Shown here: positions 5,244 through 56,277 of the stretch, piece by piece
Numbering within the stretch: the stretch's first letter is position 1
Layout: the number at the start of each line of letters is the position of its first letter
Assembly: GCA_902806415.1 (NCBI GenBank)
Contig: CADCWN010000015.1
Span: forward strand, 57,229-121,228
Source of the DNA: an uncultured Thermomicrobiales bacterium
Lineage (GTDB): Bacteria; Chloroflexota; Chloroflexia; Thermomicrobiales; CADCWN01
Length of the DNA: 64,000 bases
Direction of reading: 5' to 3'
Made by a program: the position numbers and the translations under genes
The notes under the pieces: generated by a model
Databases searched by the model: none
Told to the model about the DNA's origin: nothing
Seen by the model: the letters and a program-made list of their open reading frames with translations, nothing else

Positions 5244-5433
5244 AACGAGCCGACCGCCTCAATTCTAGCAGTTTCTTTCGAGCACACGATATGATAGGGG
5301 GGAAAAGTCGGTGCTGTCTCAATTCGTCACTCGTCATTCACTTGGAAAGCTGACCCGGCGCACCCGGCGGCGTATACTTCCCGGCAGCACGATCGATAGC
5401 CTCGTTCACAACGCAAGGCAAGGGCAAGGCACC

Positions 5434-6024
5434 ATGAACACTTCCCTGCGGATGACCTCCGCCGACCTGGCGAATTTCCCCGATGACGGCAAGCGACGCG
5501 AGATTATCGACGGGGAGTTGTACGTGTCGACGCAGCCGCACTGGTATCACCAAGTCCTCTGCGCCCGCTTCGGCCAATTTCTGGGCGAGTGGGGCGATGA
5601 GTCCGGTCGCGGTCAGGTCGCCGTCGCGCCGGGGCTGATCTTCGCGGAGGACGACGATGTCGCGCCGGACGTTGTCTGGGCCAGCCGGGAGCGGCTGGCG
5701 CGGATTCTCGAAGGCGGGAAGCTCTATGCCGCGCCCGAGTTGGTGATCGAGGTGCTGTCGCCGGGTCGGAAGAATATCGCGCGCGACCGCGAGACGAAGC
5801 TGAAACTGTATGCCCGCCGCGATGCCGACGAATACTGGATCGCCGACTGGCCTCGACACGCCGTCGAGATCTACCTCCGCGCGGGCGACACCCTCACGCT
5901 CGCCGAGACACTCGGCCCCGGCGACACACTGACGACGCCACTCCTGCCTGGCTTCGCCGTGGCCCTCGATCGGCTCTTCGCGGGGTTCCCCTTCGCCGAG
6001 GCCGTGGGGGAGGGCGAAGGATAA
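5434..6024 (+). CDS. Uma2 family (DUF820) endonuclease
   Basis: …DDGKRREIIDGELYVSTQPHWYHQ…APDVVWAS…APELVIEVLSPG…DRETKLKLYARRDADEYWIAD… I trimmed to ATG 5434. The upstream 41 codons of the track ORF translate a heptamer-repeat half site. Confidence 0.85.
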   Translation: MNTSLRMTSADLANFPDDGKRREIIDGELYVSTQPHWYHQVLCARFGQFLGEWGDESGRGQVAVAPGLIFAEDDDVAPDVVWASRERLARILEGGKLYAAPELVIEVLSPGRKNIARDRETKLKLYARRDADEYWIADWPRHAVEIYLRAGDTLTLAETLGPGDTLTTPLLPGFAVALDRLFAGFPFAEAVGEGEG

Positions 6025-8699: not shown

Positions 8700-8711
8700 G
8701 GCCCCTCCGGG

Positions 8712-8815
8712 GAGTGACGAGTGACGAGTGACGAGTGACGAATGGGAACGTGACGGAGGTCATACATCTTGAGAGTCCTCCCGCGAACCTTATTCGTCAC
8801 TCGTCATTCATCATT
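8712..8815. repeat. heptamer-array hairpin element (locus B)
   Basis: (GAGTGAC)x4 at 8712..8739. The inverse arm ATTCGTCACTCGTCATTCATCATT lies at 8792..8815. The thiM stop (8804..8806) lies inside the right arm. Confidence 0.85.
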
Positions 8816-9607
8816 AATCTTGACTTCTGCAACACCCCGCTGGCCGAGGGCGGCGACCTCATCGATCAAGCGAGCGCGGAAGGTGCCGGGGCCGGGGTCG
8901 CCAGCGGCGGCGCGCTCGGCGGCGAGGCCGTAGGTGCCGAGGGCCAGCGCGGCCTGGGTCACGGGATCACCACCGGCGGCCAGGAAGATGCCGATCGCGG
9001 CGGTCGCCATGCAGCCGGAGCCGGTGATCCGCCCGAGGAGCGGGTGACCGTTGTGGACGGCGAGCGTTTGTCCACCGCCGACAACGATATCGATCGCACC
9101 GGTGACCGCGACCGCGACCCCGAAGCGCGCCGCCGCAGCCCCGGCGACGGCGCGCGGATCTTCCCCGCCGACCGCATCGACGCCGCACATCTGGCCTGAG
9201 CCGACGAGCGCGCCGATCTCGCCGCGATTACCACGCAGCACCGTGATCGGCAGTTCGGAGAGGAGGCGCAGGGCGCTCTCGGTGCGGAACGCCGTCGCGC
9301 CCGCGCCGACCGGATCGAGGACGATCGGCACCCCGCGCGCGGCGGCGGCGCGCCCCGCCAGCAGCATCGCCTCGATCTCGGCCCGCGAGAGGGTGCCGAT
9401 GTTCAGCGCCAACGCCCCGGCCAGCGCCGCCATCTCGGCGGCCTCCTCGGGCGCGTAGGCCATCACCGGCGACGCGCCGAAGGCGAGTGTGACGTTGGCA
9501 ACATCGTTGGTGACGACGATATTGGTGATGTGGTGGATCAGCGGCACCCGCTCGGCCACGCGCGCCAGGGCCGCCGCCGCTTCAGTGCTGAAATCGATGC
9601 CACTCAT
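8804..9607 (-). CDS. thiM: hydroxyethylthiazole kinase
   Basis: …PLIHHITNIVVTNDVANVTLAFGASPVMA…IVLDPVGAGATAFR…TGSGCMATAAIG… is ThiM-like over its full length. Confidence 0.9.
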   Translation of the reverse strand: MSGIDFSTEAAAALARVAERVPLIHHITNIVVTNDVANVTLAFGASPVMAYAPEEAAEMAALAGALALNIGTLSRAEIEAMLLAGRAAAARGVPIVLDPVGAGATAFRTESALRLLSELPITVLRGNRGEIGALVGSGQMCGVDAVGGEDPRAVAGAAAARFGVAVAVTGAIDIVVGGGQTLAVHNGHPLLGRITGSGCMATAAIGIFLAAGGDPVTQAALALGTYGLAAERAAAGDPGPGTFRARLIDEVAALGQRGVAEVKINDE

Positions 9608-16270: not shown

Positions 16271-16273
16271 GCT

Positions 16274-16410
16274 GAACGCGGAAGTCGGAGCGCGGAGCGC
16301 GGAATAAGAAGCGAGGACCGGGCGGGGGGCACATGTTGTGCCGCCCCGCCGCATTATTCGGCAGGGCCATCACCCCTTGTTCCGCGTTCCGACTTCCGAC
16401 TTCCGCGTTC
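16274..16410. repeat. heptamer-array hairpin element (locus C) with nested GC hairpin
   Basis: The arms 16274..16307 and 16377..16410 are 29/34 complementary by my alignment. An inner hairpin GGCGGGGGGCACA/TGTGCCGCCCCGCC lies at 16321..16350. The element starts 4 nt after the sodA stop. Confidence 0.85.
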
Positions 16411-16489
16411 CACAGCCCCTCTGGCACCATCCTTGCGCTGCCTGCGGGGAAGACCTCGTCGTTCTAGCAAAGACCAGAAGGAGGATCTT

Positions 16490-17950: not shown

Positions 17951-18044
17951 CCGTCGCGCCCCTTCCTAACACCCACCACATCATCACGCGCCCGACTCTC
18001 TCCGGCGGGTGCCCATTTTACCAGCAACGCGGCGGGCGTGGGCA

Positions 18045-18100
18045 CGATCCCCTACAATCTCGCCGTGGCGTGAGCGCGATCCCCCACAGTCTCGCCGTGG
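18045..18100 (+). promoter_or_regulatory. tandem 24-nt direct repeat (32-nt period) upstream of the sigma-factor gene
   Basis: CGATCCCCTACAATCTCGCCGTGG (18045..18068) and CGATCCCCCACAGTCTCGCCGTGG (18077..18100) are 22/24 identical. Copy 1 contains TACAAT. Confidence 0.4.
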
Positions 18101-22637: not shown

Positions 22638-22658
22638 CCCTCTCTCCGGTTTATTGTT

Positions 22659-22823
22659 GGCAGTCGGCAGTCGGCTGGTAGTCGTCGGTCGTCGGTCGTC
22701 AGTCCTCAGAAGAGCGTCCGTAGTCCGTAGAAGGGTAGCTGACCTGCGGCCCTACTCGACCACTGGCCCACTGGCTCACTCGCACCACCCTCTGACGACT
22801 GACGACTGCCGACCGACGACTCG
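22659..22823. repeat. composite heptamer-array element (locus D)
   Basis: RGTCGTC-type array, AGTCCTC-AGAAGAG, AGTCCGT-AGAAGGG, TGGCCCA/CTGGCTC units, then a complementary CTGACGA array. It fills the whole gap between the carbamoyltransferase start and the upp stop. Confidence 0.9.
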
Positions 22824-38793: not shown

Positions 38794-39897
38794 CTAGATT
38801 AAGTCGAAATTCGGGCGGACGTCGAGGGTGAAATCGGCCAGGCGACCGACGGGGAGGCGATAGGCCGCCGCCGCGCCGATCATCGCGGCGTTGTCGGTGC
38901 AGAGGGCGAGCGGCGGATAGCGCAGCGGCAGATCGAGCCGCCGGCCCAGGCGCTCGCGCAGCAGGCCGTTCGCCGCGACGCCGCCCGCCAGCAGCACCAT
39001 CGTCGCGCCGGACTCGCGCGCCGCGCGGGCGGTCTTCTCCACCAGCGGCTCGATGATCGCCTCCTGATACGCCGCCGCCAGGTCGGCGACCGGCAAGGTT
39101 GGCCCGAACTTCGGGGGCGTGTAGGTCGGGAACGGCGCGGCGGGGGTCGGCTGCTGCCCCTTGCTCTTGCCCTTGCGACCGCCCGTCGGACCGGTCAGGT
39201 GGTGCTTCTCGGTGGCGCGCAGCAGCGCCGTCTTCACGCCGCTGTAGCTGAAGTCGAGCGAATCGCCGAGCCAGGCGCGCGGCAGGCGATAGCGGTCGGC
39301 CTGCCCGGCAGCGGCGGCGCGCTGGATCGCTGGGCCGCCCGGATAGCCAAGGCCGAGAATCCGCGCGCCCTTGTCGAACGCCTCGCCCGCTGCGTCGTCG
39401 GTCGTCCGCCCGAGGAGGCGATAGTGGCCGTGGCCGAGCATCAGCAGCAGTTCGGTATGCCCGCCGGAGACGATCAGGCAGACGAGCGGGAAGGAAGGCG
39501 GCGGCGTAGCCTGATCTTCACCCGCCTGGAGGAGCCAGTTGGCGTAGATATGCCCCTCCAGGTGGTTAACCGGGATCAGCGGCAGCCCGCGCGACCAGGC
39601 GACCGCCTTGGCCCAATTCACCCCCACCAACAGCGCGCCCGCCAGCCCCGGCCCCTCGGTCACGGCGATCGCGTCGATCCCGTCGAGGGTCAGCCCGGCA
39701 TCGGCCAGCGCCCGCTCCACGACCGGGTTGATCGCCGTGATATGCCCGCGCGCCGCCAACTCCGGCACCACCCCGCCATAAGCGCGGTGCAGCTCGATCT
39801 GCGACGCCACGACGTTCGCCAGCACCCGCCGCCCGTCGCGAACGATCGCCGCCGCCGTCTCGTCGCACGATGTCTCGATGGCCAGGATGGTCGGCAT
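38794..39897 (-). CDS. tsaD: tRNA N6-adenosine threonylcarbamoyltransferase TsaD
   Basis: MPTILAIETSCDETAAAIV…VNHLEGHIYAN…LIVSGGHTELL…. Confidence 0.95.
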   Translation of the reverse strand: MPTILAIETSCDETAAAIVRDGRRVLANVVASQIELHRAYGGVVPELAARGHITAINPVVERALADAGLTLDGIDAIAVTEGPGLAGALLVGVNWAKAVAWSRGLPLIPVNHLEGHIYANWLLQAGEDQATPPPSFPLVCLIVSGGHTELLLMLGHGHYRLLGRTTDDAAGEAFDKGARILGLGYPGGPAIQRAAAAGQADRYRLPRAWLGDSLDFSYSGVKTALLRATEKHHLTGPTGGRKGKSKGQQPTPAAPFPTYTPPKFGPTLPVADLAAAYQEAIIEPLVEKTARAARESGATMVLLAGGVAANGLLRERLGRRLDLPLRYPPLALCTDNAAMIGAAAAYRLPVGRLADFTLDVRPNFDLI

Positions 39898-39908
39898 ATC
39901 AGTACTCC

Positions 39909-39996
39909 AGTCCGTAGTCCGTAGAAGGTTCGTAGGTATGCTAATGCTTTACTTTTCTGCAGTCCCTCTACGGACTACGGACTACGGACTACGGAC
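39909..39996. repeat. heptamer-array hairpin element (locus E)
   Basis: AGTCCGT AGTCCGT AGAAGGT, an AT-rich loop, then CCTCTAC (GGACTAC)x3 GGAC. The rimI stop TAG (39982..39984) lies inside the right arm. Confidence 0.9.
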
Positions 39997-40593
39997 CGCC
40001 CCATTCGGCGAATCATGCCACCGCGCCAGCCTCAGGCCGAGGGTGGCGCGCAACCCGGCCAGGCTTTCGAGGGTCGGGCTTTCGTTGAGGGCTGGCGACC
40101 ACATGATGTGAGCGTCCTCGCCATTGTCGCTGTAATAACGCTTGCGGAGGCCCTGCCGCGTGAAACCGTACTTCTCGTAGAGCGCCAGCGCGCTGGCGTT
40201 GGAGACGCGCACCTCCAGCGTCACCCAGCGCGAGCGGCGGCGGATCGCCTCATCGATCATCGTCACGAAGAGGAGTTCGCCGAGCGACCGCCCGCGCTGC
40301 TCGGGCAGGACACCGATCGTGGTGATGTGCGCCTCGTCGAGCATATTCCACATCCCGCCGAAGCCGAGAATCGGCGGTTTCGCGGGGTCCGCGCGGCGCA
40401 CGAACGGCAACAGGTGCAGCCCGCCGCGCGGGCGCTCGTCCGGCACGCCCGTATGCGGCGGTCGCCAGCGCACGACGATGTAGTAGTTGTGCTCGGTGTC
40501 GCGCAGTTCGCGCCGATAGGCGCTGCTCGGCCAGGGGTTGGTGAAGCAGCGGCGCTCCACCTGGCTGACTTCCTGGACATCGTCTTGGGTCAT
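39982..40593 (-). CDS. rimI: ribosomal-protein-alanine N-acetyltransferase RimI-like GNAT
   Basis: MTQDDVQEVSQVERRCFTNPW…ITTIGVLPEQRGRSLGELLF…LEVRVSNASALALYEKYGF… The track ORF (to 40725) adds about 44 aa that translate repeat locus F. The start is set to ATG 40593, with GTG 40605 as an alternative. Confidence 0.8.
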   Translation of the reverse strand: MTQDDVQEVSQVERRCFTNPWPSSAYRRELRDTEHNYYIVVRWRPPHTGVPDERPRGGLHLLPFVRRADPAKPPILGFGGMWNMLDEAHITTIGVLPEQRGRSLGELLFVTMIDEAIRRRSRWVTLEVRVSNASALALYEKYGFTRQGLRKRYYSDNGEDAHIMWSPALNESPTLESLAGLRATLGLRLARWHDSPNGAVRSP

Positions 40594-40624
40594 CGGCTCG
40601 ATCACGAACGGCACGGCACGCCTC

Positions 40625-40700
40625 GGTAGATAGTCGGTAGTCGGTAGTCCGTAGAAGGGCGGCGACTCTGCTTCCCTATCCGCCCACTCGCCAGTGGCTA
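40625..40700. repeat. heptamer-array element (locus F)
   Basis: GGTAGAT AGTCGGT AGTCGGT AGTCCGT AGAAGGG CGGCGAC…CCCACTCGCCAGTGGC. It lies between the tsaB stop and the probable rimI start. Confidence 0.85.
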
Positions 40701-40728
40701 GTCGAGGGTCGCGCTTGGGGGGCATAAC

Positions 40729-41496
40729 TCAGTTATCGGGCGGCAGTCGCCAGTCGGCGACCGGCAGGGTCGGGAGCGTGGCCTCGGCGAGGGCGCGGGC
40801 GGGGTCGCCAGCGGGCGGGGCGTGCAGGTAGACCGGCTCCAGCGTATCCGCGTCATCCCACTCGTCGCGACGGAAGCGTGCCCAGGCCAACTCGGCCAGG
40901 CACCCGGCGCGGCGCGCGTTCAAGGTCGGGGAGGTCAGCAGCGCCTCGGGGGCCAGCTCGCGCCAGGCGTCGAGGCGGTCCTGTGGCAACTCGCCGCAGA
41001 CCAGGGTGGGGGCGGCGACTAGCGCCGCCAAGCCTTCCAGCGTCGTATTCTCGTACTCGGTCAGGCGACGCAAGCTTCCCTCCGGCCAGTCGTAGAGGGC
41101 GCTGACGAAACGCCCCCGCCCGGCGGCGATGACGGCGCGCACCGGGTGACCGTAGCCGCCGTGCGGGTAGGCCACCGCGTCGAGCGTCGGGATACCGAGG
41201 AGGGGCAGGCCGAGCGCGAAGCAGAGCCCTTTCGCGGTGCTCAACCCGACGCGCAAGCCATTAAACGCGCCGGGGCCGGTCGCCACCGCGACCGCGCCGA
41301 GATCGACCGGGCGCAGGGCGGCGAGTTCGAGCAGCCGCGCGGTCTCCCCCAGGATCGCCGTCGTCTGCGCGCGGCCCGCCGACCAGGAGGTTTCGCCCAG
41401 GAGTCCGCCCGCGCCGTAGAGCGCGATCCCCGCTGTCAGGGTCGAGGTGTCGAGCGCCAGCAGCGGCCCGCGCCGCGCCGCGTCAGGAGCCGACAC
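40729..41496 (-). CDS. tsaB: tRNA threonylcarbamoyladenosine biosynthesis protein TsaB
   Basis: …LLALDTSTLTAGIALYG…AVAVATGPGAFNGLRVGLSTAKGL…. Confidence 0.9.
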   Translation of the reverse strand: MSAPDAARRGPLLALDTSTLTAGIALYGAGGLLGETSWSAGRAQTTAILGETARLLELAALRPVDLGAVAVATGPGAFNGLRVGLSTAKGLCFALGLPLLGIPTLDAVAYPHGGYGHPVRAVIAAGRGRFVSALYDWPEGSLRRLTEYENTTLEGLAALVAAPTLVCGELPQDRLDAWRELAPEALLTSPTLNARRAGCLAELAWARFRRDEWDDADTLEPVYLHAPPAGDPARALAEATLPTLPVADWRLPPDN

Positions 41497-42022
41497 CGAA
41501 CGCCTCCGCCCTGATCGCCGCCAGGAGTTCGCCGGGGCGCGCGCCGCGCGGCAGGAACGCCAGGCGGCGCTTCGTCTCGCTCACGGGTGCCAGCATGATC
41601 AGCAAATGCTCGCGCGCGACCCGCTCGCCGAGACGGTCGGGCCACTCGATCGCGCAAATCCCCGCCGGATCGTCCAGCATATCCTCCAACCCGACCGACG
41701 CGACCTCCGCCTCCGTCTCCAAACGGTAGAGGTCGATATGGTACAGCCGCAGCGACGCCCCCTCGGCGTCGTGACCGTCATGCTCGTTGACGAGCGCGAA
41801 GCTCGGGCTGGTCACCCGATCGGCCACGCCAAGACCGGCGGCGAGTCCTTGCGTCAGCGCCGTCTTGCCCGCGCCGAACGTGCCGGAGAGGAGGAAGAGA
41901 TCGCCCGCCCGCGCGTGCTGGCCGAGTCGCCAGCCGAGACGTCGGGTCTGCTCGGGGCTGTGGCTGATGAAATCGAGCGTCGCGCCCCGCGTCAGCCCCG
42001 CATTCGCCCCATTCCCCGCCAT
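41483..42022 (-). CDS. tsaE: tRNA threonylcarbamoyladenosine biosynthesis ATPase TsaE
   Basis: …FLLSGTFGAGKTALTQGLA…SPSFALVNEH…LYHIDLYRL… It overlaps the tsaB start by 14 nt. Confidence 0.9.
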   Translation of the reverse strand: MAGNGANAGLTRGATLDFISHSPEQTRRLGWRLGQHARAGDLFLLSGTFGAGKTALTQGLAAGLGVADRVTSPSFALVNEHDGHDAEGASLRLYHIDLYRLETEAEVASVGLEDMLDDPAGICAIEWPDRLGERVAREHLLIMLAPVSETKRRLAFLPRGARPGELLAAIRAEAFGVGS

Positions 42023-42247
42023 TGTCTCTTACCATCCCCCGCCAGCCGCCATCCGGCGGCCCCGTTGCAGCGCGCGCACCATGCGTGCGTACTGACCAAT
42101 AGTAGCAGGGTGGGGGAAGGGTCGTCATATCGCGCGCCCGGTCGGCACCCCAAGGAGGGGCGCTGACGCGAGGCGCGGCAATTGACGCAACGCCCGCCCG
42201 CCCCATACCATGCCGCCGTATGTGGATACAGTCAGGAAGGGAGCAGC

Positions 42248-44323
42248 ATGGCAGCGAACCGAGCAATCACCGCCGACGATCTGTACGCGCTCCAATTCGT
42301 TGGCGACCCGCGCGTCTCGCCCGACGGGGCGCGCGTCGCCTTTGTCGTCACGGTGGCCGACCGGGAGCGCAACGACTATCGCTCGCGGATTTGGATCGTC
42401 CCGATCGATGGCAGCGCACCGCCGCGCCCGCTCACCGCCGGGCCGGGCAAGGACACCAGCCCGCGCTGGTCGCCCGACGGCCGGCGCATCGCCTTCCTGT
42501 CCGATCGCGAGCCGGCGACCTTGCCGGATGGCGTCGAGCGCGGCGAGAAGGCGAAGCCGCAAATCTGGACCCTCGATCTGGCCGGCGGCGAGGCGCGGCA
42601 AGTCACCGCCCTACGGCAGGGCACGAGCGATCCCGCCTGGTCGCCCGATGGCGCGCGGCTCGCCTGCACCTCGCAGGTCGGCGGGCCGGACGACGAGCCG
42701 ATCGACACCGGCAAATCGGCGACCGAGCGGGCGCGGGAGCGCGCCGACCGGGTCCGCGAGATCACCACCCTGAAGTACAAGTTCGACGGCCTCGGCTACC
42801 TCGACGGCAAGCGGCGGCACCTCTTCGTCGCCGATGTACCAGCCCCCGGCGCGTCGCCCGCCGCCGCGCACCAGCTCACCGACGGCGACCAGAACGACAG
42901 CCAGCCGGCGTGGTCGCCGGACGGGACGCGGCTCGCGTTCGTCTCCTATCGCGAGCCGGACGAGGATGTAACCTTCCGATCCGACATCTGGACGCTGACC
43001 CTCGCCGACGGCGTGTGCCGCAAGCTGACCGGCGGGGGCGGCGCATCGACCGCCCCTGCCTGGTCGCCCGATGGCGGGCAGATCGCCTATCTGGGCCATC
43101 AGGAGGGCGAGGGCGCGGCGGCGATGACCCGCCTCTGGACCGTCGGGACGGGCGGCGACGGGCCGCCGGTCTGCCGCAGCGCCGACTTCGATCGCGACCT
43201 CGGCAATAGCACCCTCACCGACCAGACCTTGCCGGGCGGCCAGGAAGGGCCGGTCTGGTCGCTCGATGGCCGCGCGATCCTCGCCCTGGTCGGCGACGGC
43301 GGGGCGACGGGGCTGCGGCGCTTCGGGCTCGACGGTAGCGAGCCGGAGGTCGTGGTCTGCGGCGAGCGGGTTGTGACTGCCTTCGCGACTGCGGGCGGGG
43401 GCGCGCGGCTGGTCTTCGCCGCGACCGACCCCGCCACACCCGCCGAACTCTTCCTACTGGATGGGGAAGGCGACGAGCGGGCGCTGACGGCCTGCAATGC
43501 CGCCCTGCTGCGCGAGCGCGCGGTCGCCCTGCCCGAGTCGTTCCGCTTCAGCGGCGCGCGGGGCGACGCGATCGATGGCTGGCTCGTGCGCCCGCTCGGC
43601 GCGGCGGCGGGCGCGGCGGTGCCGCTGGTCGTGGCGATCCACGGCGGGCCGCACGCGCAGTACGGCTTCGCCTTCTTCCACGAGTTCCAGATCCTGGCCG
43701 GGAAGGGCTACGCGGTCTTCTACTGTAACCCGCACGGCGGCACCGGGCGCGGCGACGCCTTCGCCAAGGCGATCCTCCGCGACTGGGGCGCGCTCGCGAT
43801 GGCTGACGTGATGGCCGGGCTCGACGCGGCCCTCGCGCGCGGCGGCTGCGACCCGGCGCGGCTCGGCGTCACCGGCGGCTCGTATGGTGGGTTCCTGACC
43901 AACTGGATCACCAGCCACACGACGCGCTTCGCCGCCGCCGTGACGCAACGGTCCTATTGCAACGCCCTCGGCTACTTCGGCGTGGATGACATCGGCGCGA
44001 TCAGCGATGTGGCCGAGTTGGGCGGCCATCCCTGGGAAGTCCCCGAGCGTTATCTCGCCCTCTCCCCGATTCTGCACGTCGGCAACGTCACCACGCCGAC
44101 CCTGATCGAGCACCAGGCCGAGGACTATCGCTGCCCACTCAGCCAGGCCGAGCAGTGGTACGCCGCCCTGAAGAAGCGCGGCGTCCCGACCAAGCTCCTG
44201 ATTTATCCCAATGAGAGTCACGGGATGTCGCGCAACGGCAAGCCGCGCCACCGGATCGAGCGCCTGATGCACAACAGCGCCTGGTTCGATCAGTGGCTCG
44301 GGGGGAGTAATCGTGAGTCGTGA
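42248..44323 (+). CDS. S9 family serine peptidase with N-terminal beta-propeller
   Basis: Repeated …SPRWSPDG.R.AF… propeller motifs. The catalytic region is …GVTGGSYGGFLTNW… I trimmed to ATG 42248. The stop lies inside repeat locus G. Confidence 0.9.
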   Translation: MAANRAITADDLYALQFVGDPRVSPDGARVAFVVTVADRERNDYRSRIWIVPIDGSAPPRPLTAGPGKDTSPRWSPDGRRIAFLSDREPATLPDGVERGEKAKPQIWTLDLAGGEARQVTALRQGTSDPAWSPDGARLACTSQVGGPDDEPIDTGKSATERARERADRVREITTLKYKFDGLGYLDGKRRHLFVADVPAPGASPAAAHQLTDGDQNDSQPAWSPDGTRLAFVSYREPDEDVTFRSDIWTLTLADGVCRKLTGGGGASTAPAWSPDGGQIAYLGHQEGEGAAAMTRLWTVGTGGDGPPVCRSADFDRDLGNSTLTDQTLPGGQEGPVWSLDGRAILALVGDGGATGLRRFGLDGSEPEVVVCGERVVTAFATAGGGARLVFAATDPATPAELFLLDGEGDERALTACNAALLRERAVALPESFRFSGARGDAIDGWLVRPLGAAAGAAVPLVVAIHGGPHAQYGFAFFHEFQILAGKGYAVFYCNPHGGTGRGDAFAKAILRDWGALAMADVMAGLDAALARGGCDPARLGVTGGSYGGFLTNWITSHTTRFAAAVTQRSYCNALGYFGVDDIGAISDVAELGGHPWEVPERYLALSPILHVGNVTTPTLIEHQAEDYRCPLSQAEQWYAALKKRGVPTKLLIYPNESHGMSRNGKPRHRIERLMHNSAWFDQWLGGSNRES

Positions 44324-44427
44324 GTCGTGAGTCGTGAGGGAGGCGTTGCTGGAAAAAGGGCGCCCGGCTTCAGCAAATCTTCTCGCGATTCGTGACCCAC
44401 GACTCACGACTCACGACTCACGACTCG
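44312..44427. repeat. heptamer-array hairpin element (locus G)
   Basis: (CGTGAGT)x3.9 at 44312..44338 and the complementary (CACGACT)x4 at 44398..44425, separated by a 59-nt loop. Confidence 0.9.
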
Positions 44428-44679
44428 TCCGGCCACAACAGCAGCGACAACGCCGCCACGACCAGCACGATGAGGGTCACAATCGCCAGCGTCAGCACTC
44501 TGCCCTCCCCGACTGAGCATCCCCAGAGCTTGTGCGCCAGTGGGTGTCGACGCTGGCGTATGAGCCCCAAATGTTCATCACCAAGCGGCAGCGCCGCGCG
44601 GGGTGAAGTATAGTCAGCATTGGCTCACGCTATCGGGGGTGCCATTCGTCCGTCGCACTATCGGCATCGAGGGATCACT

Positions 44680-49316: not shown

Positions 49317-49332
49317 TCCTCGGCTTCAATTT

Positions 49333-49406
49333 GAATGACGAGTGATGGGTGAAGTACGAAGTACGGGCTGGCACTGGCCCACTGGCCCATTCGTCATTCG
49401 TCGTTA
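49333..49406. repeat. heptamer-array element (locus H)
   Basis: GAATGAC GAGTGAT GGGTGAA GTACGAA GTACGGG CTGGCAC TGGCCCA CTGGCCC ATTCGTC ATTCGTC. GAATGACGA (49333..49341) pairs with TCGTCATTC (49391..49399). Confidence 0.85.
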
Positions 49407-49568
49407 ATTCCGCTTCGCGCCACCATGTTCGTGTACCTCGGCGGGTAGGATACCGTACTGGTTGTATCCGGTCACGGCGTCGGCGTGGGAGTCTTGCGCG
49501 CCGAGGCATAGTTCGAGGTCAAGTGTGCCGGATGGTGCGCCGCCATCGACCGCCCAGCCATAGGAAAT

Positions 49569-51902: not shown

Positions 51903-52448
51903 TTAGGGAAAGAGGTGTGCCACGTCGGCGGTGATGTCGGGGAAAAGTGGGCAGACGAGGGTGTCGCCAGCGCGCAGGGGCGGTGCCTCGTCGTACCCTC
52001 TCGCGCCGAGGGTGAGCGGTTGCACCGTCTTGGCGATCGGGTCGGCGACCCAGTAGAAGCGGACACCCTCGCGCGCGTAGAGGGTTTTCTTCCAGCCCAG
52101 GTCGTGGTCGCGCGTCCTCGGCGACAGGATTTCGATGACGAGATCGGGTCCCCCAGCAATGTACTGCGGCTCGATGATCTCCAGGCGATCATTGCTGATA
52201 AACAGCAGATCGGGCTGGACAACCTGGTAGCGTCCGAAATGCACGTCAGTCGGGGCGGCGAACATCCGGCCCCATCCCGCGTCTTCCGCGCGAAAGAGCA
52301 GGTTGCCGAACCGCGCCGACACTCGTTGGTGATAAGTTGCCGGTGCCGGGCTCACGATCAATTCTCCGTCCGCAAGCTCATAACGCTTGCCGTCATCCGG
52401 CAACTGCGCCAAATCGTCGTAGGTGAAGAGCGGCGTCTTGACAATCAT
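51903..52448 (-). CDS. Uma2 family (DUF820) endonuclease
   Basis: …LPDDGKRYELADGELIVSPAPATYHQ…VQPDLLFIS…GPDLVIEILSPRT…DLGWKKTLYAREGVRFYWVAD…. Confidence 0.85.
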   Translation of the reverse strand: MIVKTPLFTYDDLAQLPDDGKRYELADGELIVSPAPATYHQRVSARFGNLLFRAEDAGWGRMFAAPTDVHFGRYQVVQPDLLFISNDRLEIIEPQYIAGGPDLVIEILSPRTRDHDLGWKKTLYAREGVRFYWVADPIAKTVQPLTLGARGYDEAPPLRAGDTLVCPLFPDITADVAHLFP

Positions 52449-53716: not shown

Positions 53717-53996
53717 CTACCGCAGATACGGCCCGAGATCGATCGCGCGATCCTCTTCAGCGGCGAGATACACTCCATACGATACCGCGACGACATCGCG
53801 CGCGAGGAGTGCGCCGCTGAGCGGTTCGCGGTCGTCGGCGACAGTTTTCGCAGAGGTCTTGTAGCTCCGCCGTCGGCGAGTAGAGCCCCGCGATCGACAC
53901 CTCGACCCCGTGGACGAGCGCATAGTTCTCCAGGTGCAGCCGCGCGGCAAACCCCGCGCCGACTATGCCGATGCGGACGTGGCGGCGTGCGGGCAT
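53717..53996 (-). pseudogene. N-terminal fragment of a Gfo/Idh/MocA oxidoreductase (frameshifted, truncated)
   Basis: MPARRHVRIGIVGAGFAARLHLENYALVHGVEVSIAGLYSPTAE (53757..53996 frame) continues in another frame as …KTVADDREPLSGALLARDVVAVSYGVYLAAEE…*. No catalytic or C-terminal domain follows. Confidence 0.6.
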
Positions 53997-54013
53997 GGGG
54001 CCGCCTTCGGGGG

Positions 54014-54160
54014 AGTCGTCGGTCGTCAGTCGTCAGTCGCCAGAAGAAAATGTGCAGGCCGCAGCCCGTAGAAGGGCGGCTTCATGCTCACACTCGGCAC
54101 TCGGCACTCGGCACTTCTCTCTGACGATTGACGATTGACGACCGACGACTGACGACTGCC
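54014..54160. repeat. composite heptamer-array element (locus I)
   Basis: AGTCGTC GGTCGTC AGTCGTC AGTCGCC AGAAGAA … AGCCCGT AGAAGGG … (CACTCGG)x3 … GATTGAC GATTGAC GACCGAC GACTGAC GACTGCC. The module order matches locus D. Confidence 0.9.
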
Positions 54161-54164
54161 AACT

Positions 54165-55232
54165 CTACCCCGGCAACCAACTCCCATACTTCGGATGCTC
54201 CGGACCGATCGGCAGGGTGACCGGCTGGCCGGTCTCTGCTGAGTGGTACATCGCGGTGATCAGTTCGAGCGAGGCGCGGGCGTCGGCGAGGGTGACGGGC
54301 AGTTCGCCGCCCTCGGCGAGCGCGGTGGCAAAACGGTGAAACTGCCCGGCGAAGCTCTCCGGCAGCGGGGTGAAGTTCGCCAGTGCCTCCTCGATCCGGG
54401 TGGCGAGTTCGGGCGAGTCGCCGGTGATCTCCCAGGGATCGCCCGAATTGGTGTAGGGACGGGTGTTGCTCTCGGCGGAGAGGTTCTGGAAGGTGAAGCG
54501 ATGGCGACTGATCTCCGCCGCCGAGCCGAGGGTCACGCCGAGGGAGGCCAGCGCGCCACTCGCCAACTCCAACGAGACCGTCGCGCAATCCTCGACCTCG
54601 ATCCGATTCACGCGCGTCGCCGTGCGCGCGAAGACACTCCGCACCGGGCCGAGGACGTAGGAGAGGATGTCGTGGCCGTGGATGGCGTGGCCGAGCAGCG
54701 CGCCGCCGAGTTCGGTCGCCCACTTGCCGCGCCAGGGGACATCATAGTATGCAGCCCGCCGCCGCCAGGCCGTCTCGACCGTCGCCTGATAGGGCGTCCC
54801 GGTCAGCCCCGCCGCTTGCAGGAATTTGAGACGCTGGAGCCCATGCCCGAAGCGGTACTGGAAGATCGGCATGATCCGCCTGCCTGACGCCGCCTCGGCC
54901 CGTGCGAGCTCGTCCACGTGGCGCAACGAACCGACGAGCGGTTTCTCGCAGATCGCGTGCTTCCCCGCCGCCAGGACTTCGTTGATCTGGGCGAAGTGCA
55001 GATGGGGCGGCGTGCAGATGTCGATCACGTCGAGATCGTCCAGCCGGCAGAGCGCGCCGAAGTCGTTGACGACGCGCGGCACGCCGTGCTCCGCGGCGAG
55101 CGCCCGCGCCTTCGGCTCGTCCAGGTCGCAGATCGTGGTCAGGTCGAACTGCGCCGGCAGGGTCTTGTAGGCGCGGACGTGCGACGCGCCGATCCCGCAG
55201 CCGACGACCGCGACGCGCAGGGGGGCGGCCAT
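54165..55232 (-). CDS. Gfo/Idh/MocA family oxidoreductase
   Basis: MAAPLRVAVVGCGIGASHVRAY…AICEKPL… I trimmed to ATG 55232 (AAGGAGG upstream). Confidence 0.9.
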   Translation of the reverse strand: MAAPLRVAVVGCGIGASHVRAYKTLPAQFDLTTICDLDEPKARALAAEHGVPRVVNDFGALCRLDDLDVIDICTPPHLHFAQINEVLAAGKHAICEKPLVGSLRHVDELARAEAASGRRIMPIFQYRFGHGLQRLKFLQAAGLTGTPYQATVETAWRRRAAYYDVPWRGKWATELGGALLGHAIHGHDILSYVLGPVRSVFARTATRVNRIEVEDCATVSLELASGALASLGVTLGSAAEISRHRFTFQNLSAESNTRPYTNSGDPWEITGDSPELATRIEEALANFTPLPESFAGQFHRFATALAEGGELPVTLADARASLELITAMYHSAETGQPVTLPIGPEHPKYGSWLPG

Positions 55233-55233
55233 C

Positions 55234-56277
55234 TCAGACCTCCTTGGTGTCACTGGTGATCCGTCGCGCCGCCGCTTGCGCCCGCAGGGCCAGCTCCGAC
55301 GCCAGGAACGAGTGCTCCTGGGTCATCGCCGTCTCGGTGCGCGCCAGGATGTCGGCGACGAAGAGGTGACCGAACGGCAGATCGACTTGCGAGCAGTCGA
55401 TGTAGCGCGTCTCCTTCCCATCGACCAGGAAAAGGTGATTCGGGCCGGGTCGCCCGGCGATATCGACATTCTTGCGAACCTCGATGAAACCGTCGGTGCC
55501 GAGGACCGTCAGGCGGGTGTCACCCCAACTGTCGAGACCATCCGGCGTGAACCAATCGACGCGGATATAGCCGGTGCCGCCATCGCCGCGCAGCAGCACG
55601 TCGCCGAAATCCTCGAACGCGGGCCACTGCGGGTGTGCCAGATTGCCGACCTGGGCCGCCACAACGTCCGCCTGCCGCGAGCCAGTGAAGAAGAGGAATT
55701 GGTCCATCTGGTGCGCGGCGATGTCATTGATGATCCCGCCGAAGCGCGCGGCGTCGAAGAACCAGTCAGGGCGGCTCGTTAGGCGCAGGCGGTGCGGGCC
55801 GAGTCCGATCGTCTGCAACGGTCGCCCGATCGCCCCGCCCGCGATCAGTTCGCCCGCGCGCACCGTCGCCGCGTTCTCGAAGCGCTCGCCGTAGAAGACG
55901 GCGTGGAATTTGCCGGTCTCCGCCTGGGTTCGTCGCGCCTCCGCCAGTTGATCGAGGGAGATGAAGCCTGGCTTGTCGCTGAGATAATCTTTGCCGTGCC
56001 GCATCGCGGCGACGCCGATCGGCCCACGCTCATCCGGGATGGCGGCACTGGCGATCAGGTGCAGGGTCGGATCTTCCAGGATCTCCTCGCGCGTCGTCGC
56101 TTGCTTAACGCCGGGGAATCGCTCGCCGAACGGCGCGGCCAACTCCGGCTCCGGTGCGTGGAACGCAGCCAATTCTGCCCCGGCCCCCAGGAGCATCCGC
56201 ACCATCCCGTAGATATGATCGTGGTTGAGGCCGATCACGCCGAAGCGCACCGGCCCGTTCTCTGGAGTCGAGGACAA
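55234..56277 (-). CDS. Gfo/Idh/MocA family oxidoreductase
   Basis: (TTG)SSTPENGPVRFGVIGLNHDHIYGMV…YLSDKPG… I trimmed to TTG 56277, preceded by GGAGGTG. The upstream 83 codons of the track ORF translate the TIR repeat (…YAMRPY…). Confidence 0.85.
   Translation of the reverse strand: MSSTPENGPVRFGVIGLNHDHIYGMVRMLLGAGAELAAFHAPEPELAAPFGERFPGVKQATTREEILEDPTLHLIASAAIPDERGPIGVAAMRHGKDYLSDKPGFISLDQLAEARRTQAETGKFHAVFYGERFENAATVRAGELIAGGAIGRPLQTIGLGPHRLRLTSRPDWFFDAARFGGIINDIAAHQMDQFLFFTGSRQADVVAAQVGNLAHPQWPAFEDFGDVLLRGDGGTGYIRVDWFTPDGLDSWGDTRLTVLGTDGFIEVRKNVDIAGRPGPNHLFLVDGKETRYIDCSQVDLPFGHLFVADILARTETAMTQEHSFLASELALRAQAAARRITSDTKEV

Follow-up and report, generated by a model that had tools for sequence, protein, structure and literature searches.

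The 64,000-nucleotide stretch of DNA analysed here (the window), from an uncultured Thermomicrobiales bacterium (Chloroflexota), contains a real self-complementary element of roughly 150 bases, locus I, which is built of tandem heptamer repeats and fills the gap between two genes (53997-54164). On the best-supported reading, locus I is no one-off regulatory device; it belongs to a family of elements with tandem-heptamer arms that is scattered through the genome and has been quickly remodelled. We assign a probability of about 0.55 to the fuller proposal, in which slippage drives this family of self-complementary heptamer elements, and its copies are tolerated in intercistronic spacers and co-transcribed as stem-loops.

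The initial annotation of positions 54014-54160 divided them into 21 heptamers, and this parsing matches the letters of the window exactly. Tandem Repeats Finder (TRF) identifies three period-7 arrays in locus I. The left array (AGTCGTC/GGTCGTC, 4.3 copies, 54014-54043, score 46) reads GACGACT on the minus strand, which is the sense strand of the flanking genes, and forms the 3' arm of the inverted repeat there (arm I1). The right array (CTGACGA/TTGACGA/CCGACGA, 5.4 copies, 54121-54160, delimited by TRF as 54121-54158 with a score of 55; arms I1-I3) reads AGTCGTC in the gene sense and forms the 5' arm. Between them lie a central segment (54044-54090), consisting of AGAAGAA, two decayed AGTCCGT-type units (AGGCCGC and AGCCCGT) and then AGAAGGGCGGC, and an inner array of 3.6 copies of CACTCGG (54091-54115; 100% matches, score 50), which is CCGAGTG in the gene sense. 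The modular build and the pairing terminal arrays of the proposed 21-heptamer composite are thereby upheld, but the units are not 21 equivalent ones, since only about 13 are truly periodic. A claim that the periodicity persists through the spacer held in part: four of the five spacer units start with AG or GG (P ~0.002-0.008), but the period-7 self-match of 54042-54090 is marginal (P ~0.04) and period 3 scores higher. This partial periodicity is seen because AGGCCGC, AGCCCGT and AGAAGG are decayed copies of an AGTCCGT...AGAAGG module, which is intact in three other heptamer loci of the window (D, E and F).

The terminal array had also been described as complementary to the first, and the two outer arrays are indeed inverted complements, with arms of 31 nt (54014-54044 and 54120-54150) that are 90% complementary and lie 75 nt apart. 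In the mRNA sense the whole stem-loop extends over 54011-54165 of the minus strand, with an outer stem of ~31 bp that continues inward through AGAGAGAAG/CTTCT pairs. The predicted folding energy of a 176-nt region around locus I was -91.2 kcal/mol for the minus strand and -88.7 kcal/mol for the plus strand, against shuffle means of -65 and -61 kcal/mol (z = -6.6 and -6.5), and none of 200 shuffles was as stable; the predicted fold of 53997-54164 has an energy of -87.4 kcal/mol. On either strand the predicted structure is one long interrupted hairpin. A search of the whole window with Rfam 15 gave no family at the gathering threshold, and near locus I only a spurious long non-coding RNA match (E = 0.74).

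The initial annotation considered locus I to mirror locus D (22638-22823, minus strand), which lies between the stop of upp and the start of argF, and this likeness extends over the full length of both elements. D and I can be aligned from end to end in the same module order with a score of 102, a value reached by none of 300 controls in which the 7-nt blocks of I were permuted (mean 11.8, maximum 35). The order on the sense strand is (AGTCGTC)n, AGAGRG, CCGAGTG/CCAGTGG arrays, CCCTTCTACGG, TCTTCTG and (GACGACY)n, and the predicted consensus fold has 40 pairs, of which three are compensatory. D and I are evidently true paralogues. Loci E and F share with I only the core module CCTTCTACGG, found at 54066-54075 (minus strand) in the central segment of I. 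This 10-mer occurs four times in the window, where 0.04 occurrences are expected; all four lie inside D, E, F or I, all are on the gene-sense strand, and the module was not found in the elements of related genomes. The sequence common to F and I proved to be longer than noted, an exact 15-mer, CCGTAGAAGGGCGGC, that starts at 40649 and 54066 (54066-54080 in I) and nowhere else in the window (0.02 expected). The suggestion that D, F and I might be combined into one covariance model is unrealistic, because a D/I profile run on the window matched no locus other than D and I over its full length, and its remaining hits covered the arms only; locus F has no 5' arm.

Comparison with relatives suggests that these elements turn over at fixed gene junctions. 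We compared the window with a set of related and other contigs, L001-L221. At the junction orthologous to that of locus I, relatives at 80-87% protein identity have periodic hairpins of differing units, or none. The units are TAGTCGG/CTGACTA in L002, the 8-mer GAGAGTGA in L085, GGCAGTC and CCACTGGC in L090, and the 8-mer GCCGCGGA in L001. L003 has the 8-mer CCAGTGGG together with AGTCGTC and with the CACTCGG unit of locus I, the latter in the opposite orientation, and in L086 and L004 an extra small gene is present and the array is absent. At the D site, L219-L221 (ArgF 90% identical) have a simpler AGTCGGC...ACTGCCG hairpin with outer arms homologous to those of D, and L211-L218 (ArgF 89% identical) have a 127-nt spacer without periodicity. 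A heptamer hairpin in the window and an 8-mer hairpin in L001 stand between orthologous genes at the site of a further locus, B. The junction between the GFO_C3 gene and the oxidoreductase (GFO) gene upstream of locus I is 1-4 nt in the window (55234-55253), L001 and L002, and in L086-L089 and L004 it holds a 95-nt 8-mer hairpin, (GGTTCGAA)n...(CCTTCGAA)n (L086 1214-1316; L004 9900-9990). Here a tight junction has gained an element.

Between close strains the arrays vary by entire units. L219 and L221 encode the same ArgF and agree throughout the flanks, and their sole differences, which lie in the 3' array of the upp-argF hairpin, are one extra unit (4 versus 5) and two homogenised units, ACTACCG to ACTGCCG (L219 2867-3000; L221 38-178; L220 belongs to the same group of strains). 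Such a difference is the signature of slippage or conversion. The L086 and L004 hairpins differ by one unit and by one compensatory pair of changes, C>G in the 5' arm and G>C in the 3' arm, that preserves pairing.

A strict scan of the window found 11 period-7 runs and none for each of periods 4-6 and 8-12. The period-7 bias was also present in relatives L002-L005; L001 had only one run each at periods 7 and 8. Nine heptamer loci, designated A to I, are present in the 64 kb, and nearly all of them fill intergenic spacers between called genes. Long hairpins that occupy nearly the whole spacer are found at seven loci (B, C, D, E, G, H and I), and a single array only at A and F. Stems start 0-8 nt past stop codons and 3' arms finish just before Shine-Dalgarno sequences. 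Locus A (2648) lies in the leader of an M42 peptidase gene, B (8700-8803) between thiM and the gene for a 153-aa protein, C (16271-16432) between sodA and a CBS-domain gene, G (44300-44440) after an S9 peptidase gene, and H at 49317-49420. Locus E (39898-39981, minus strand) is an (AGTCCGT)n hairpin between rimI and tsaD, and F (40614-40728, minus strand) is a single 3' array, (ACTACCG)n, between tsaB and rimI. Elements F and E occupy the two intercistronic spacers of the conserved tsaB-rimI-tsaD operon (38797-41580, minus strand), and tsaE lies directly upstream of it (41486-42028).

In three places (8804-8817, 39982-39995 and 44311-44323) arrays extend into the 3' ends of genes and provide their stop codons: the TGA of thiM lies in GAATGAC, the TAG of rimI in TCCGTAG and the TGA of the S9 peptidase gene in GAGTCGT. 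Slippage at such gene ends would alter the C-termini of the proteins, and translation would still be terminated. The highest TRF score of the window (104) belongs to a separate 32-nt tandem repeat of 2.1 copies at 18035-18100. Three genes of the Uma2 family (PF05685, putative restriction endonuclease) are found within ~71 kb, at 5269-6021 (plus strand), 51906-52448 (minus strand) and 1236-1808 of L222, the upstream part of the same contig. The Uma2 family is expanded in cyanobacteria and Chloroflexi, groups rich in heptamer repeats.

Both genes flanking locus I are on the minus strand, as was stated in the initial annotation, and the elements at D and I have like positions relative to their genes. 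The gene upstream (54165-55253, minus strand) encodes a Gfo/Idh/MocA oxidoreductase of 362 aa (Pfam PF01408, PF22725 and PF02894), and its TAG stop codon (54165-54167) lies 4 nt beyond the end of the element at 54160, at the distance originally given. On the other side, a Shine-Dalgarno-like GAAGG (54004-54008, minus strand) lies 5 nt past the 3' arm and is followed, after a 7-nt gap, by the ATG of the next frame (53994-53996). Using tblastn with the L003 and L002 orthologues, we found that this frame is part of what remains of a third Gfo/Idh/MocA gene (53717-53996, minus strand), with residues 1-43 and 358-399 of the 398-aa orthologue left in different frames. The gene downstream of locus I is a deletion relic, dead in this genome. 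Both the relic and the locus I element are identical to the window in L084, an independent short contig. The gene order conserved in relatives is Amidohydro_2, GFO_C3, GFO, element or spacer, GFO and DUF429.

A sense open reading frame (ORF) of 53 codons (54026-54187, minus strand) begins within the upstream gene, crosses the stop-free AGTCGTC arm and stops at the first TGA of the GACGACT arm, 30 nt short of the next ATG. This ORF is probably fortuitous, and an internal small ORF that overlaps both the flanking stop and the flanking start, as in MIRU elements, was not found at locus I.

The paired periodic arrays obey a polarity rule: the arm bearing AGT, usually the one richer in G or purines, lies 5' and the one bearing ACT lies 3'. 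Of 60 distinct hairpins in the window and L001-L221, 49 could be scored, and the counts were 46 versus 3; a second detector gave 62 versus 4 (62/66). The control, 844 non-periodic inverted repeats from the same DNA, gave 45 versus 29. The polarity counts are phylogenetically non-independent; counted by unit family, they come to roughly 12 against 1 or 2. Hairpins that follow the rule include 44306-44428 in the window, 5651-5766 in L002 and 1641-1808 in L129, and a clear exception is 1839-1903 in L173. Since an AGT-5'/ACT-3' arrangement is its own reverse complement, the rule is valid on both strands and cannot be derived from gene direction. Single GACGACT arrays obey it as well, with a gene abutting the 3' side of the array whichever strand the gene is on. 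In the gene sense, GACGACT arrays lie a median of 20 nt ahead of the next start, and AGTCGTC arrays often begin 0-5 nt past a stop.

Several candidate causes of the polarity were considered and rejected. The stem energy is the same for both polarities, and G.U wobble pairs show no asymmetry either. GACGACT has TGA in all three frames and AGTCGTC has no stop, but an account based on stop codons is not general, because the GAGTGAC, TAGTCGG and TCCGTAG families have stops in the 5' arm. Loading of Rho fails for AGUCGUC, in which YC dinucleotides are in the 5' arm. The GTAG and CGTC tags of repetitive extragenic palindromic (REP) elements were set aside as well; the units themselves contain these motifs, and hairpins are often preceded by a TAG stop with a G before it. 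GTAG ahead of elements was not significantly enriched (3 of 7, versus 6 of 39 other genes).

Among 80 loci fetched by means of the oxidoreductase, period-7 runs were confined to the close relatives of the window and a few other lineages. An exact search of JGI metagenomes with 2.9 copies of GACGACT returned at least 120 contigs, with G+C of 0.35-0.75, and many of the contigs listed have full AGTCGTC...GACGACT hairpins with unrelated loops. One of these hairpins is that at 1641-1808 of L129 (GC 0.49), a Bacteroidota contig, in which a neighbouring type IX secretion system (T9SS) protein has 76% identity to a protein from a Bacteroidetes metagenome-assembled genome. With L129 typed as Bacteroidota, the AGTCGTC unit and its polarity therefore occur in a second phylum. 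Parts of the unit vocabulary (GACTCAC, TTCGTCA, CTGACTA and GAAGTAC) recur in different genomes. Positions 1-225 of L195, a contig that also has GACGACT arrays, hold a CAGTTAT/CAGTTGT...TAACTGA hairpin with the AGT arm 5'. Because the polarity rule holds on both strands, in Chloroflexota and in a Bacteroidota contig, and for single arrays too, the hairpins could be products of an unrecognised directional process or of an element superfamily that spans phyla, though we consider this improbable. A transposase or nuclease recognising AGT-core heptamer ends would give such a polarity pattern. Head-to-head arrays, like those of a telomere fusion, would also result if a broken chromosome received templated repeats at its 3' ends and the ends were then joined.

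In the explanation that we favour, the heptamer arrays would expand and contract through replication slippage, and the likeness of the two arms may be kept by fold-back (template-switch) correction or by selection. Insertions might survive in tight intercistronic junctions because the elements fold back on themselves. Locus I would be co-transcribed with the flanking minus-strand genes as a stem-loop of ~60 pairs, and its geometry suggests that the foot of the stem would place the upstream stop, 4 nt off, beside the downstream ribosome-binding site, 5 nt off. Such closeness of stop and ribosome-binding site would preserve translational coupling. A terminating ribosome covers about 12-15 nt past the stop, and therefore the foot of the stem would open and the next ribosome-binding site would be exposed. 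It is also plausible, by analogy, that the stem-loops act as a generic barrier to 3' exonucleases, a role that REP elements have in E. coli. A role in regulation specific to this locus is unlikely, because relatives have no element or unrelated ones at the site and the downstream gene is dead.

Pairing with the ribosome-binding site was considered, as GAAGGCGGC, the ribosome-binding region of locus I, is almost the complement of the inner GCCGCCCTTC. The idea was dropped because the downstream gene is a relic and the match is absent at other loci. AGTCGT and CCGTAG resemble AAGTCGTAACAAGGTAACCGTAGG of the 3' region of 16S rRNA; the Rfam scan found no rRNA in the window.

Several observations weigh against the slippage-driven, co-transcribed family that we favour. 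Co-transcription and RNA folding are inferred. Neither folding energies nor G.U counts (45 versus 42 G.U pairs in 11 elements of known orientation) show any asymmetry between sense and antisense strands, and therefore nothing favours selection at the RNA level over selection at the DNA level; the idea of a function in RNA only was set aside on the symmetry of these 11 elements. Slippage alone does not explain arms that are inverted copies of each other, and it leaves unexplained the paralogous copies at D and I and the strict polarity with the AGT arm 5'. Variation in copy number was seen at the D-site element (L221/L219), and locus I is identical in L084, the sole other assembly available. 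The density of elements is patchy, since the 7.3 kb of the same contig upstream of the window (L222 1-7319) are free of period-7 and period-8 arrays and of the CCTTCTACGG motif.

The main rival is a non-autonomous mobile element of the miniature inverted-repeat transposable element (MITE) or REPIN type, in which the arrays are terminal inverted repeats for a transposase or nuclease encoded elsewhere and single arrays are half-elements left by deletion. Such an element would account better than slippage for the D/I paralogy at unrelated loci, for gains such as that in the 1-4-nt junction and the varying presence at orthologous junctions, for a unit vocabulary that recurs across genomes, and for the polarity, in that a strict strand-symmetric rule and single arrays abutting a gene on their 3' side fit defined element ends. 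The AGTCGTC...GACGACT hairpins with unrelated loops in many metagenomic contigs, the Bacteroidota one (L129) among them, are consistent with it too, and locus I has inverted termini. We nevertheless consider mobility possible but unlikely: no target-site duplication was found at I, D or the L086 gain, relatives have other sequence instead of a clean empty site, and none of the 46 called genes of the window has a transposase or Y1/RAYT domain. Moreover, the copies are few and ~70% alike rather than many and near-identical, the units vary between loci, and the strain differences are the whole-unit changes typical of slippage. Neutral junk, a chance expansion of simple sequence without structural constraint, would fit the fast turnover, the absence of elements in close relatives and the persistence of locus I next to a relic. 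It is the least credible of the readings, given an inverted pairing between independent arrays that chance could hardly yield (z = -6.6), the compensatory arm change between L086 and L004, a polarity of 46:3 against 45:29 in non-periodic inverted repeats, and the sense orientation of the CCTTCTACGG module in 4/4 cases.

The two remaining alternatives assign the element a function. It might be a transcription terminator, attenuator or RNA-processing site that separates the expression of the flanking genes, in the form of the long hairpins lacking a U-tract that have been proposed for certain high-GC bacteria. A very stable hairpin lies 4 nt past a stop codon, a weak internal stem is followed by CACATTTTCT on the sense strand, and locus G comes after the S9 peptidase stop codon, in a convergent layout that rests on a putative small minus-strand frame. 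However, no U-tract follows the main stem, where the sense strand continues CCCCCGAAGG, and the count of terminator-like structures is at shuffle expectation (1 versus 0.6). The like architecture inside conserved operons such as tsaB-rimI-tsaD, or in 5' leaders immediately ahead of start codons (locus A), is hard to reconcile with termination, and relatives do without the element at the same junction; we therefore regard this function as doubtful. Alternatively, the arrays might be bound by a DNA- or RNA-binding protein that recognises the AGT/ACT-core heptamer with one protomer per unit, for example a nucleoid, regulatory or cold-shock-domain protein; this would agree with the AGT (or ACT) core in all units, with the strict orientation rule and with single ACT-type arrays a median of 20 nt upstream of start codons. 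Cold-shock proteins have been reported to bind heptamer repeats with one protein per unit (cited in PMC4679880), which lends this some support. We find it very improbable even so, as the four non-core bases differ freely from locus to locus, orthologous sites show no conservation of arrays, and at most loci the arrays would be sequestered in duplex; we identified no candidate protein either.

Bacterial heptamer repeats have been on record since about 1990, and an excess of them is documented genome-wide; to our knowledge, their origin and function are not understood. The best-supported reading is that locus I belongs to this known intergenic class, similar to the short tandemly repeated repetitive (STRR) sequences of cyanobacteria, as a variant. 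Its three arrays of 3.6-5.4 copies each contain the three or more head-to-tail 7-nt copies that define the class. The (GGGAATC)n repeats of Xanthomonas and the (GGGGAYT)n repeats of Nostoc are intergenic and in strong excess over other periods, and those of X. campestris and X. axonopodis occupy the same intergenic sites with differing length and sequence, some as inverted pairs (PMC4692102). The elements described here resemble them in their tandem 7-nt units, period-7 excess, intergenic location, junction-bound variation and the occurrence of inverted pairs capable of forming stem-loops (PMC4692102). They differ in that the Xanthomonas and Nostoc units are G-tracts proposed to form G-quadruplexes, whereas the present units are of many types per genome, built on an AGT core and free of G-tracts; inverted pairing is the rule, and the elements are nested or composite with paralogous copies. 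Like the cyanobacterial STRR and the TAACTGA repeats of Beggiatoaceae, cyanobacteria and Bacteroidetes, the present arrays comprise 2-6 or more heptamer copies, are almost all intergenic, often stand in one orientation directly ahead of starts, and are patchy across phyla (PMC4679880). The ACTGA core of TAACTGA is also similar to CGACTGA and CTACTGA here. However, TAACTGA is found almost only as direct repeats; of the 170 sets in the BOGUAY genome, one is inverted (PMC4679880). A single unit dominates each of the STRR and TAACTGA genomes, unlike the present one. None of the period-7 consensus units of the window matches the consensus STRR heptamers CCCCAGT, TTGGTCA and CAACAGT.

Like REP, BIME and REPIN sequences, the elements are extragenic, follow coding regions in the gaps between co-directional or convergent genes, probably form RNA hairpins and have families common to several species, and inverted dimers of the former often fold into larger structures (PMC3733652, PMC3116915). 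In REP, the unit is itself an imperfect palindrome or stem-loop of 20-40 bp that carries an unpaired GTAG or CGTC tag and is linked to RAYT genes, with numerous near-identical copies (PMC3733652, PMC3116915). Here, in contrast, a non-palindromic 7-mer unit builds a ~150-nt hairpin in few divergent copies, with no RAYT in the window. Identity with REP or REPIN was rejected, given that the unit is of another kind, pairing is between arrays 75 nt apart and GTAG is not distinctive. With intrinsic terminators the elements share a GC-rich stem-loop just past the stop codon, but they have no U-tract, their stem is several times longer, and they occur inside operons and in 5' leaders. BOX, Correia and ERIC (MITE-like) elements and mycobacterial MIRU are modular, vary in internal repeat number, lie in operon spacers and are co-transcribed, with effects on mRNA stability or coupling. 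They resemble locus I in modular build and intercistronic placement, but their modules are 40-100 bp and lack the 7-nt periodicity, and their copies are recognisably homologous genome-wide.

No description of heptamer repeats in Chloroflexota was found in the literature searched, and the paired and nested architecture as a rule, the turnover at fixed junctions and the polarity rule appear to be undescribed. Gene callers should be used with caution in such genomes, in view of arrays that enter gene ends and provide stop codons. This lineage offers unusually clean material, with paired, nested hairpins exactly between stops and ribosome-binding sites, turnover at fixed junctions, whole-unit variation between strains and a polarity rule that any model must explain. 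If the polarity does not reflect an enzyme or a mobile-element superfamily, the elements would still be useful as a marker of strain variation; if it does, a long-standing puzzle would become directly testable.

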